The notes beneath the pieces are model-generated. The model did not search any database, had not been told where the DNA came from, and was given only the letters and a program-made list of their open reading frames with translations. The position numbers and the translations under genes were made by a program. Shown here one piece after another: positions 6,500-22,900 of a stretch of 64,000 nucleotides of DNA. The DNA lies in assembly GCA_030532135.1 (NCBI GenBank), contig JAUNLT010000003.1, positions 68,423-132,422 on the forward strand, given 5' to 3'. The first letter of the stretch is position 1. Each line of letters opens with the position of its first letter. Source of the stretch: Lagierella massiliensis. GTDB taxonomy: Bacteria; Bacillota; Clostridia; Tissierellales; Peptoniphilaceae.

Positions 6500-7414
6500 T
6501 TATACCCTTCTTTGCTTTGCATCAGACGCTCTTCTCAAAGCTTGTCCAACATAGTTTATAGATAGGGTAAATACTAATACCAATAGTACTGCTGGAACCC
6601 AAATATAAAGCTTATCCGCTATAACTTCAGGATCTCTTGCATATGCAATTAATGTTCCTAAAGATGGTTGTGATGGTGGAAGCCCAAAACCTAGGAAAGT
6701 AAGTCCTGTTTCAATTCCTATATTTGCTGCCAATGCCAAAGTACTATCTACTATTATAATTGAGCTAATATTTGGAAGTATCTCTCCAAACATTATCTTT
6801 ATTGGGGAGGTCCCCATTGTCTTAGAAGCACTTATATAGTCTTTTCTACCCTCTGAAAGAGACTTGGATCTTACAAGTCTTGCTATACCCGTCCAGTAAA
6901 AAGCTGACATTATAAGCACAAACTTCCATTTATTATATCGGGGAATTATCGTTACAAGTACAATTATAATCATGGTAACAGGAAGTACTTGTAAAAAGTC
7001 TATAATCCTCATGATTACATTGTCCACAACTCCACCATAATAACCTATTATAAGTCCGACTGTTACACCAATTGCCGTTGTTAAAAGAGTTACTAAAACA
7101 CCTATTTGAACCGAGTTATACGCTCCCAGTATCAATTGTCCTAGCAAATCTCTTCCACCCTTGTCAGCTCCCATTATATAACCTGCTTCTCCAGGTCTTG
7201 CATAAGAGTTAAATATATCTACAGTCATTACCTCTTTAACATCTAAAAAGAAAGAAGCAATGATTATTCCAAGTATCAAGATACATAGTATAAAAAATGA
7301 TATAAGAGCAAACTTGTCGTTAACAACTTCGTTTACAATTACTTTAAAACCCATTGGTTTTTCAGATTTTTGTATATCCTTATTTAATCCTTTATTTTTC
7401 TTTTTTAACGCCAT
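6500..7414 (-). CDS. oppC: Oligopeptide ABC permease
   Basis: GADKGGRD, EAA-like loop, PSLG motif, hydrophobic helices. Confidence 0.92.
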   Translation of the reverse strand: MALKKKNKGLNKDIQKSEKPMGFKVIVNEVVNDKFALISFFILCILILGIIIASFFLDVKEVMTVDIFNSYARPGEAGYIMGADKGGRDLLGQLILGAYNSVQIGVLVTLLTTAIGVTVGLIIGYYGGVVDNVIMRIIDFLQVLPVTMIIIVLVTIIPRYNKWKFVLIMSAFYWTGIARLVRSKSLSEGRKDYISASKTMGTSPIKIMFGEILPNISSIIIVDSTLALAANIGIETGLTFLGFGLPPSQPSLGTLIAYARDPEVIADKLYIWVPAVLLVLVFTLSINYVGQALRRASDAKQRRV

Positions 7415-21024: not shown

Positions 21025-21043
21025 GCATCTACAAAGTAGATGC
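21025..21043 (-). terminator. Terminator ending the bacteriocin/protease cassette
   Basis: GCATCTAC-aaa-GTAGATGC followed by T8 on the minus strand. Confidence 0.75.
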
Positions 21044-21093: not shown

Positions 21094-21681
21094 CTAATAT
21101 ACTTCTTTACTTTCATTAAGTTTAAACCAATATGAAGATGTTCCTATAATATAAGTGTAAGAATTTTTAGGCATTTGAACGATAATATTAAATACATTGT
21201 AATAATCTCCTGCACCCATACCTATTGTAAAAACAGCCATAGAACCAAGAAGATACATTTCCCTATTCATTAAAAATATTAAAAATGGTACAAACCCAAA
21301 TACAATGTTTGGCAACAAATTCATAAAAATCGCTCTTTTTTTACTAATATTTTCTGTCCCTGTAACAAAAAGCATTCCCTTTGAAAGATTAGTGAATAAA
21401 TATACGTCTTCCTTAAAACAAATAGCGTGTAATAACTCATGGGGGAAAAGTGTTAGTATCGCCAGTATTGCTCCACTTGTATTAAAATTTTTAATACTTC
21501 CAGTATGTATTGTGAAGAACAACAAACCTAAACCTGTCAATAAAATGGCCATTATATTTATTGCAATAGAAAATTTTTCTAAATTATCAGGTTCATTAAA
21601 TTCAACATAATTATCCTCGTGTTCTCTAGTAGGTAATTTACTATTATCACCGTCAAACTTTCCTCGAAAATGTAATTTCAT
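21094..21681 (-). CDS. Membrane zinc metalloprotease (DUF3267-like)
   Basis: PHELLHA (HExxH) within a hydrophobic segment, LLP and GAGD motifs; RBS AAGGAG. Confidence 0.8.
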   Translation of the reverse strand: MKLHFRGKFDGDNSKLPTREHEDNYVEFNEPDNLEKFSIAINIMAILLTGLGLLFFTIHTGSIKNFNTSGAILAILTLFPHELLHAICFKEDVYLFTNLSKGMLFVTGTENISKKRAIFMNLLPNIVFGFVPFLIFLMNREMYLLGSMAVFTIGMGAGDYYNVFNIIVQMPKNSYTYIIGTSSYWFKLNESKEVY

Positions 21682-21700
21682 ACTTACTCCTTAAAATAAT

Positions 21701-21732
21701 AAGATAAACCTATGATAACATAGGTTTATCTT
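21701..21732 (-). terminator. Hairpin between the peptide genes and the protease
   Basis: AAGATAAACCTATG-ataa-CATAGGTTTATCTT (14-bp stem). Confidence 0.7.
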
Positions 21733-21738
21733 TTGTTG

Positions 21739-21894
21739 TTAGTTTTTCATGTTATAAATCATTTTTCCTATCTTTTCACCACTTTTATAAGATATAAATA
21801 CTAAAAAACAAATAGTTATGACAGATACTAAAATAGTGAAATACGGAAATTCTTTATATAATTCATGAAAACTCATGTACAAGATTTTATCCAT
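21739..21894 (-). CDS. Putative bacteriocin immunity peptide, 51 aa (not in ORF track)
   Basis: MDKILYMSFHELYKEFPYFTILVSVITICFLVFISYKSGEKIGKMIYNMKN; one TM helix; start overlaps the end of the upstream precursor. Confidence 0.65.
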   Translation of the reverse strand: MDKILYMSFHELYKEFPYFTILVSVITICFLVFISYKSGEKIGKMIYNMKN

Positions 21895-22033
21895 TATTCT
21901 TTGAGCCATTATACACGCCTAATCCAAAAGCGCCTACACATAGTACTCCAAGTCCTATTAAAAGTACAACTCCGCCACCATCTACCATCATTAATTCTTC
22001 ATTGCTCATGCAAACAAAATTTTGATTTTCCAT
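21887..22033 (-). CDS. Double-glycine bacteriocin-like precursor B, 48 aa (not in ORF track)
   Basis: MENQNFVCMSNEELMMVDGG|GVVLLIGLGVLCVGAFGLGVYNGSKNNG; RBS GAGG; GxxxG motif. Confidence 0.82.
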   Translation of the reverse strand: MENQNFVCMSNEELMMVDGGGVVLLIGLGVLCVGAFGLGVYNGSKNNG

Positions 22034-22046
22034 ATCTTAACCTCAA

Positions 22047-22220
22047 TTAGTTGTTCTTATAGTTGTAGATAGCTTTTCCTACAGCTACGCCTGCTTTATA
22101 GCAAACTGAAAGAGCAGCTCCAACTCCAGCAACAGCAGCACATGCTGCTAAAAATCCAATACCACCTTCTACTAATTCCAATTCCTTTGAATCTAAACAC
22201 TCAAATTTTTCTAATTGCAT
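22047..22220 (-). CDS. Double-glycine bacteriocin-like precursor A, 57 aa (not in ORF track)
   Basis: MQLEKFECLDSKELELVEGG|IGFLAACAAVAGVGAALSVCYKAGVAVGKAIYNYKNN; RBS AAGGAG. Confidence 0.88.
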   Translation of the reverse strand: MQLEKFECLDSKELELVEGGIGFLAACAAVAGVGAALSVCYKAGVAVGKAIYNYKNN

Positions 22221-22293
22221 ATTTCTCTCCTTAAAATTTTATTTAATCAATAATAATATGTGTCGACCCAAATTATTATTAATAACACAGTTA

Positions 22294-22746
22294 TTACATT
22301 TCTACATAAATATCAACGTCTACATAAACTCCCAACTGCACATTATTGTCTCTCTTTGTTACTATAAGAAACGGTGATTTCGGGACAATATTATTACTTT
22401 TAATATAATCTGTTAACTCTATAAAAGATTGGTTAAGTCCCATCATAGGACCTTTATAATTTGTCATTAGTGCATTTTCAATATTGAACTCATCAACCCA
22501 TTGCATATCGTCTATTAGTTCAATTTTTTTACTAACTGGAATTATAAACTCAGTGTCAATTAATTTTTCATCTCCTGATTCTTCAATAGCATATGTAACA
22601 GAAATAGTACAATCTACAATTTCAGCTCCCATATCTTTAATGTAATTTTCAATTTCATTGGATTTTGAATTTAATTCTATTTGAGTTAATTTTTTTCTAT
22701 AACTGATAGCATTTTTTATAGAAAAGCTTTTATTCTTATATATCAT
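22294..22746 (-). CDS. GyrI-like small-molecule/peptide-binding protein (DUF5085-like); start re-assigned to MIYKNK
   Basis: Internally duplicated pattern ...DTEFIIPV...YKGP...LTDYIKSNNI...VDIYVE; RBS GAGG before ATG at 22746. Confidence 0.65.
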   Translation of the reverse strand: MIYKNKSFSIKNAISYRKKLTQIELNSKSNEIENYIKDMGAEIVDCTISVTYAIEESGDEKLIDTEFIIPVSKKIELIDDMQWVDEFNIENALMTNYKGPMMGLNQSFIELTDYIKSNNIVPKSPFLIVTKRDNNVQLGVYVDVDIYVEM

Positions 22747-22794
22747 TTCTACCTCAACTATAATATATTTTAAATTTATTTTTGGTACAATGCT

Positions 22795-22900
22795 AATATA
22801 CAAGTTAAATTTCTCCCTGTCAATGCTTTAGCACACTTCTTTCAAAGATTTAACTTGTGTTTAAGATGCTTAACATGTGCTTTATAATGCTTAACATTTT
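22795..22900 (-). promoter_or_regulatory. Sigma-A promoter with upstream ~21-bp-periodic repeats (LytTR-type architecture)
   Basis: TTGACA (22823-22818)-N17-TATATT (22800-22795). On +, TTA(A/G)C cores at 22828, 22850, 22870, 22891; ATGCTTAACAT occurs twice exactly. Confidence 0.7.

Follow-up and report, generated by a model that had tools for sequence, protein, structure and literature searches.

The 64,000-nucleotide stretch of Lagierella massiliensis analysed here (contig JAUNLT010000003.1 of assembly GCA_030532135.1, positions 68,423 to 132,422; hereafter the window) carries a cassette of five minus-strand open reading frames (ORFs) between a promoter-like site and a terminator, coding in this order for a GyrI-like protein, two small peptide precursors (A and B), a third small peptide and a membrane metalloprotease of the DUF3267 family (Table 1). 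All five ORFs are intact, and four of them are preceded by a clear Shine-Dalgarno sequence, the exception being the third peptide. A preliminary description of this DNA, which had been made from the letters alone, had already named these features, and each of them was found on the minus strand where that description had placed it. Both its promoter and its intrinsic-type terminator were recovered, its GyrI-like gene agrees with the fold model and the Foldseek search, its HExxH membrane metalloprotease is a full-length match to PF11667 with the HExxH motif and the distal Pro and Asp, and the leaders of A and B are as reported, each with a ribosome-binding site, 20 residues and a double-glycine (GG) end. 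The overlapping 51-residue transmembrane peptide that it had listed is a real ORF, with an exact start that is uncertain.

Table 1. Genes and predicted signals of the cassette, in window coordinates.
Feature	Position	Strand	Description
Two 17-nt direct repeats, 21 bp apart	22860..22897	-	Upstream of promoter; candidate regulator binding site
Predicted sigma-70-type promoter	22795..22823	-	TTGACA-17-TATATT; 11/12 consensus match, best site of the region
GyrI-like (DUF5085-related) cytoplasmic protein, 150 aa	22294..22746	-	First operon gene; structure model, profile matches
Peptide A precursor, 57 aa	22047..22220	-	20-aa double-glycine leader + 37-aa core, own Shine-Dalgarno
Peptide B precursor, 48 aa	21887..22033	-	20-aa double-glycine leader + 28-aa core, own Shine-Dalgarno
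Third peptide, 51 aa if started at 21894	21739..21894	-	One transmembrane helix; ATG at 21894 overlaps end of peptide B
14-bp hairpin	21701..21732	-	Gap between third peptide and DUF3267; -18.2 kcal/mol, z -7.8, then interrupted U-run
DUF3267/PF11667 S2P-clan membrane metalloprotease (predicted), 195 aa	21094..21681	-	Four helices; PF11667 E 1.8e-21, full model
Intrinsic terminator	21025..21043	-	Operon end; 8-bp stem, -10.4 kcal/mol, z -4.6, then seven-U run

Peptides A and B are encoded 13 nt apart, and the leaders of both have hydrophobic residues at positions -4, -7, -12 and -15 ahead of the GG end. The cores are both hydrophobic with small-xxx-small runs, that of A forming a small-xxx-small zipper with a cationic tail and that of B being rich in glycine. 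Additionally, a cysteine stands at -13 in both leaders (22160-22220 and 21973-22033), which is unusual for double-glycine leaders. Scored against the curated NCBIfam profile TIGR03949 (class IIb, lactobin A/cerein 7B), peptide A reached 27.9 and peptide B 26.0 bits at a cut-off of 21.5, and peptide A also passed Pfam PF10439 (28.8 bits vs a cut-off of 27.1), while just two of another 150 genomes from this family had a TIGR03949 match. Class IIb bacteriocins were taken to be encoded by adjacent genes and to have double-glycine leaders of 15-30 residues and GxxxG-type motifs (PMC2850506), and at the gene level A and B have the adjacency, the leaders and the small-xxx-small motifs. The assembly, to which all of our whole-assembly searches are limited, comprises 1.23 Mb and is 65% complete; a regular expression for the leader, run over all of its small ORFs, gave 12 matches, among which only A and B had the features of leader peptides, and the remaining ten were judged to be chance. 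In a word-index search of 5.8 billion proteins, A and B matched only themselves, and for peptide A there was likewise no match in 60 related genomes. A distant relative of peptide A was located in one other locus (L065, 7236-7400) and weak relatives of peptide B in three (L061, L049 and L008). Because the two peptides pass TIGR03949 and have no relative by word-index search, they are new sequences in a class already known, the lactobin A/cerein 7B family.

The third peptide is related to peptide A. Its ORF spans 21909-21739 with possible starts at 21909, 21894 and 21876, and its start is uncertain because no Shine-Dalgarno sequence precedes any of the three; translation is probably by coupling. 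In BLASTP it aligned with pre-peptide A over residues 22-56 of both, in register and with no gaps (27.7 bits, E 5e-7); it has bulky residues in place of the small zipper residues of A and no GG site. The tails, YKAGVAVGKAIYNYKN in peptide A and YKSGEKIGKMIYNMKN in the third peptide, are identical at 10 of 17 positions, and the alignment as a whole identifies the third peptide as a paralogue of A with a dead leader. The gene order at the L065 locus of Anaeromicropila populeti is GyrI-like, a homologue of peptide A, two leader peptides, a small membrane ORF and the exporter, and this small ORF matches the peptide A of its own locus at 28.1 bits (E 5e-7), with a degenerate RGN opposite the GG site and a tail identity of 9/17. 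Across the two loci, a toxin and the immunity tail of the other locus agree at 4-5 of 17 positions, and the two A tails at 7 of 17. Nucleotide identity within the loci is about 60%, so that recent gene conversion is not the cause. Among 182,258 non-cognate pairs, three scored as high, and these were rejected as antisense shadow ORFs of the conserved exporter gene. [quoted passage not shown] Small single-helix immunity proteins are known from class IIb loci (CbnZ with 42 residues, BrcI with 53, and AbpIM; PMC6957408), and no description of paralogy between toxin and immunity peptide was found in the literature searched. In the model for lactococcin G, the cationic end of the alpha-peptide lies at the cytoplasmic side (PMC2850506), and by analogy the positively charged tail would face the cytoplasm here.

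The lead gene of the cassette was read as 22746-22294 because a longer TTG start falls inside the promoter. AlphaFold2, supplied with an alignment of 78 sequences, modelled its product with a mean predicted local distance difference test score (pLDDT) of 94.9 and a predicted template-modelling score (pTM) of 0.86, as a strand-helix-strand-strand unit occurring twice (duplicated SHS2). Foldseek aligned the model with GyrI-like folds at a template-modelling score of about 0.7, including CTR107, the effector domains of BmrR and EcmrR, the albicidin resistance protein STM3175, CtaZ (closthioamide self-resistance) and SbmC, and the predicted structure thus confidently places the lead protein in the GyrI-like superfamily. 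The nearest Pfam family is DUF5085 (PF16895; 22.8 bits, E 1.3e-4, covering 15-140 of the 141 model positions). When 1.84 billion representatives were searched with a profile, 430 relatives were returned, mostly of about 150 residues; among the best 78 homologues, 39 match DUF5085 (E<=0.001, best 1.7e-9) and nine match GyrI-like. One profile match of 1558 residues (P0007) was discarded as spurious, being a repetitive surface protein. In the ESM Atlas, the lead protein is positioned next to the GyrI-like and DUF5085 clusters, and we read it as a sister group that is related to DUF5085 with no formal membership. A word-index search with the lead protein returned only the protein itself, and no plasmid match was obtained. 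A search with PF16895 was silent in 400 genomes of the phylum and also in the controls, and is therefore uninformative.

To place the lead gene in a wider context, we used 80 comparison loci that were picked solely by their similarity to the exporter of this genome. A member of the GyrI-like family (E<1e-15) is present in 28 of these, in 27 cases on the strand of the exporter, and in 23 of the 28 a leader-peptide ORF with the same orientation follows within 2.5 kb downstream and is usually the next gene. In a sample of 400 genomes of the phylum, two strong GyrI-like matches (E 2.4e-62 and 1.5e-51) both lie in loci with leader peptides and an exporter, as do two weaker ones (L035 and L037); one more match (L036) has no leader peptide in view, and the remaining weak matches (L029-L032) are generic GyrI-like proteins in unrelated contexts. 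There is also a second arrangement, in which the GyrI-like gene overlaps the HlyD gene (L035, L037, L013 and L017) and, in L035, the exporter gene as well. Within the family, a genome of another genus (G102) has a homologue of the lead gene with 32% identity (E 4e-22), followed by a pair of leader peptides, then a small membrane peptide and then an exporter that is 80% identical to ours. Across the family and phylum samples, all specific matches fall in loci of this kind. Judged by comparison with other loci, the lead gene is tied to leader peptides. We found no report linking DUF5085 or GyrI-like proteins to double-glycine bacteriocins in the literature searched, the sole published trace being in the rtg locus of pneumococcus, where rtgX is listed as a 'GyrI-like hypothetical protein' (PMC7018657).

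The comparison loci also yielded several observations on how such cassettes vary. The G102 genome holds truncated 3' copies of the GyrI-like gene (L007, G102:C1:1210000-1224000, at about 7189-7332, and G102:C1:1209103-1209240; profile positions 109-156), one of which immediately precedes a second leader-peptide pair, and these fragments suggest that peptide cassettes are shuffled by recombination within the lead gene. A near-identical 64-residue membrane peptide with two helices follows the leader peptides in two genera of the family (L007:4590-4784 and L008:7550-7744) and is a candidate shared immunity gene, with no Pfam match. In a Herbinix metagenome-assembled genome (L073:1000-1485), two adjacent leader peptides have different cores and the identical tail PCPAPTPPPG.

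For the last gene of the cassette, the PF11667 match scores 77 bits at a cut-off of 27.1, residues H81, E82, H85 and P124 show no variation, and five of six homologues have D161, by which the product is a predicted S2P-clan metalloprotease with intact catalytic residues. Homologues lie directly upstream of the exporter in four loci (L073, L081, L074 and L055, frameshifted in L055); the order in L081 is GyrI-like, five leader peptides, DUF3267, exporter and HlyD, and in L055 the DUF3267 gene comes after two immunity-type proteases of the CPBP family. The closest homologue (62% identity, G007) is encoded directly upstream of a lantibiotic-protection ATP-binding cassette (ABC) transporter, with ATPase, MutE and MutG subunits that each exceed their cut-off, and has no peptide genes nearby, and on plasmids of C. 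perfringens a DUF3267 gene adjoins a cluster of LanM and exporter. The orphan DUF3267 copies beside immunity genes agree better with a role in immunity than with one in maturation. Among DUF3267 proteins, TmcP alone has been characterised; it is an intramembrane protease of the S2P clan that cuts the leader from the membrane-integrated TMcin precursor and requires a two-helix escort for this (PMC13712780). A second kind of S2P-clan protease, a 383-residue Peptidase_M50 protein, was seen among leader-peptide genes in another locus (L035:12445-13596).

No exporter was found within the window. In the same assembly, contig C14 has intact genes for a 736-residue ABC transporter with a C39 peptidase domain and for a 513-residue HlyD-type accessory protein. 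The closest named relative of this exporter is from Helcococcus bovis (89% protein identity), and further relatives at 54-81% identity occur widely across Clostridia, Lachnospiraceae among them. At the DNA level, the exporter (G000 contig C14:1265-2843) is 82% identical to that of H. bovis (L090), whereas three chromosomal stretches flanking the H. bovis exporter locus are 64-71% identical to this genome, and because of this difference the comparison suggests either horizontal spread of the exporter or a strong or unusual constraint on it. In G102, the leaders beside the 80%-identical exporter resemble those of A and B. The 1.3 kb upstream of the C14 exporter hold no leader-peptide gene, unlike the corresponding regions of its relatives.

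With regard to transcription, a scan for terminator-like sites returned three where 0.3 would be expected. The 11-nt core of the direct repeats upstream of the promoter occurs as these two copies only when the whole assembly is searched. An 18-nt inverted repeat (22793-22865; 83% complementary, arms 37 nt apart) covers the -10 and -35 elements and touches the lower end of the first direct repeat, and could be an operator. The hairpin in the gap ahead of the DUF3267 gene, a feature that the preliminary description does not list, is possibly a partial terminator or a 3' stabiliser, and since the promoter scan revealed no promoter-like site between the third peptide and that gene, the DUF3267 gene is probably reached by partial read-through; the hairpin may thereby lower its expression relative to the peptides. 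The genes neighbouring the cassette are those of a flavodoxin and a hydrolase. In a synteny comparison with five genomes of the same genus, the sole match was an S51 peptidase gene (58% protein identity) with other neighbours.

Taken as a whole, we consider it fairly probable that the cassette is an operon for a two-peptide bacteriocin of class IIb type with three proposed layers of producer protection, and we infer every one of the mechanisms involved from homology and gene neighbourhood. The promoter with its 21-bp-spaced repeats would drive the GyrI-like gene, A, B and the third peptide, and the hairpin would pass a part of transcription on to DUF3267. In the cytoplasm, the GyrI-like protein would bind the hydrophobic, zipper-bearing cores of pre-A and pre-B, preventing their insertion into the producer's membrane from within or their aggregation before export, and the exporter, acting in trans, would cleave after GG and secrete A (37 residues) and B (28 residues). 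Outside, A and B would pair by way of their small-xxx-small motifs and make the membranes of related bacteria permeable. The third peptide, with its dead leader site, would stay in the membrane of the producer as a decoy that has kept the tail of A and has bulky residues in place of the zipper, and the DUF3267 protease would cut peptides entering that membrane. The three accessory genes recur in similar loci and probably serve to protect the producer. In this regard, the preliminary description had recognised the layout of class IIb bacteriocins, which is borne out by the scores against the curated families and by the gene order, in which a small membrane peptide comes after two adjacent leader peptides, and its remark that the peptides are not a described bacteriocin fits the searches. 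Its view of the five genes as one system also gains from the other loci, with the GyrI-like gene in 28 of 80 exporter loci, DUF3267 upstream of the exporter in four and the same order in L081. Of its open choice between antagonism and signalling, we favour antagonism and rate signalling as a less likely alternative. [quoted passage not shown]

Several other explanations have to be weighed against this one. The DUF3267 protein could be a maturation enzyme that cuts the third peptide or trims A and B, the third peptide then being a third component of the toxin, as TmcP does remove the leader of a membrane-integrated precursor (PMC13712780) and the gene directly upstream of DUF3267 codes for a membrane peptide with a single helix, the third peptide. 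We regard this as rather unlikely, given that the locus is without a TmcE-like escort, TmcD and TmcBC, that the third peptide has one cysteine instead of the two conserved ones and no long leader, and that the nearest DUF3267 relatives mentioned above either adjoin lantibiotic-immunity genes with no peptide gene or, in L055, come after the two CPBP proteases. A reading of the whole cassette as a TMcin cluster was rejected, the DUF3267 gene being the only one in common and a long-leader two-cysteine precursor, TmcE, TmcD and TmcBC all being absent. A lanthipeptide reading was also set aside, as the genes next to the cassette do not include LanM (no search for LanM was made in the remaining genome). 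The GyrI-like protein, in turn, could be a small-molecule-binding or regulatory module, such as a sensor for an unlinked DNA-binding partner, or a general drug-sequestering protein. The solved GyrI-like domains are mostly binders of small ligands (BmrR, EcmrR, CTR107 and CtaZ), generic GyrI-like proteins do occur in unrelated contexts (L029-L032), and the zipper content of leader-peptide cores in exporter loci is the same with and without a GyrI-like gene (61% and 60%, a null result). Nevertheless, the lead protein has no DNA-binding domain, in four loci its relatives overlap exporter or HlyD genes (L035, L037, L013 and L017), in 23 of 28 they precede leader peptides, and tested members of the nearest family, DUF5085, bind toxin helices, so that we hold this explanation to be unlikely. 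An orphan immunity gene of a T7SS was rejected as a reading of the lead gene, and LXG and WXG100 had no match in the 65%-complete assembly. Finally, A and B could be exported peptides with a non-bactericidal role, such as signalling or colonisation fitness, or the cassette could be a silent orphan whose peptides are not exported. The unlinked exporter would suit this, as would the fact that neither a regulator nor an inducing peptide was found in the 65%-complete genome, and the pneumococcal rtg locus, also with a GyrI-like gene, has no demonstrated killing (PMC7018657). We find it improbable: the two cores are long and hydrophobic with many small-xxx-small motifs, and both are recognised by a bacteriocin family profile; an immunity-like paralogue and a membrane protease are sensible only with a membrane-active product; and none of the five ORFs is disrupted, four of them having good ribosome-binding sites.

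A number of observations nevertheless weigh against a self-protected two-peptide bacteriocin. The exporter is unlinked to the cassette in the assembly, and the 11-mer of the promoter repeats is not present upstream of it. The search for a regulator came up empty, with LytTR not found in the genome itself, though this is only 65% complete. The DUF5085 score of the lead protein (22.8 bits) is below the Pfam gathering threshold of 30 bits, and as the zipper test was null, the proposed ligand specificity is without comparative support. The decoy idea is supported by two loci and one borderline case, the sole biochemical precedent for DUF3267 is a protease of maturation and not of immunity, and the internal hairpin might insulate the DUF3267 gene completely.

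Compared with known class IIb systems (TIGR03949; PMC2850506), the cassette shares the adjacent gene pair, the double-glycine leaders, the GxxxG-type motifs, the small immunity-like membrane gene and, as proposed, export through an ABC transporter that has a peptidase domain and an accessory partner, and it differs in having no close sequence relative, an unlinked exporter, a GyrI-like gene in first and DUF3267 in last position, and an immunity-like peptide that is paralogous to A. For the lead gene, the relevant precedents are the DUF5085 proteins TipE of S. gallolyticus and ExiA/ExiB of S. aureus ST398, which give cytoplasmic immunity against the glycine-zipper toxins TelE and EsxX of the T7SSb and act before secretion, the zipper helix being held by ExiB in a hydrophobic groove of its GyrI-like fold (PMC10434224, PMC12744356). 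The lead protein resembles them in being soluble, in having about 150 residues and a GyrI-like fold of two SHS2 units, and in being encoded next to a zipper-bearing, membrane-depolarising toxin (here the proposed one), whereas its partners are short ABC-exported leader peptides and not T7SS LXG proteins, and unlike the ExiA/ExiB heterodimer pair it is a single gene that lies upstream of the toxins and scores below the Pfam cut-off. RtgX (PMC7018657) likewise comes from a GyrI-like gene within a locus that encodes double-glycine peptides and an ABC transporter with a peptidase domain, a likeness that is drawn by description only. The DUF3267 protein has PF11667, about four transmembrane helices, the HExxH motif with distal Pro/Asp and the setting in a bacteriocin locus in common with TmcP (PMC13712780, PMC12328743), and differs in that a TMcin-type precursor, an escort, a disulfide enzyme and TmcBC are missing and that removal of the leader would fall to the C39 domain of the exporter. 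With the Abi/CPBP proteases and with CbnZ, BrcI and AbpIM (PMC6957408), the accessory genes have the operon position and the proposed role in common, and the 42-55 residues of the latter match the size of the third peptide; unlike the Abi/CPBP proteins, which are glutamic proteases marked by the EXXXR and FXXXH motifs, DUF3267 is a zinc-dependent family of the S2P clan, and the window protein matches PF11667 only. The layout of the operon is a new variation, in which a GyrI-like gene comes first, the proposed immunity peptide is derived from the toxin and a protease of S2P type is encoded behind a hairpin.

Peptides A and B represent new sequences from a little-studied lineage of anaerobes, and the interest of the cassette is centred on its accessory genes. 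The self-protection of producers of two-peptide bacteriocins has been called 'a mystery' (PMC6957408), and the cassette offers three testable hypotheses in this regard, namely a GyrI-like holder of the precursors, a toxin-derived decoy and an S2P-type immunity protease. If the decoy holds true, the specificity of immunity would be readable, and could be re-programmed, from the tail of the peptide. If the GyrI-like protein is indeed a holder of precursors, it would join the immunity biology of the T7SS to ABC-exported peptides, and its gene would serve as a marker with which BAGEL and antiSMASH could locate small peptide genes that have escaped annotation.

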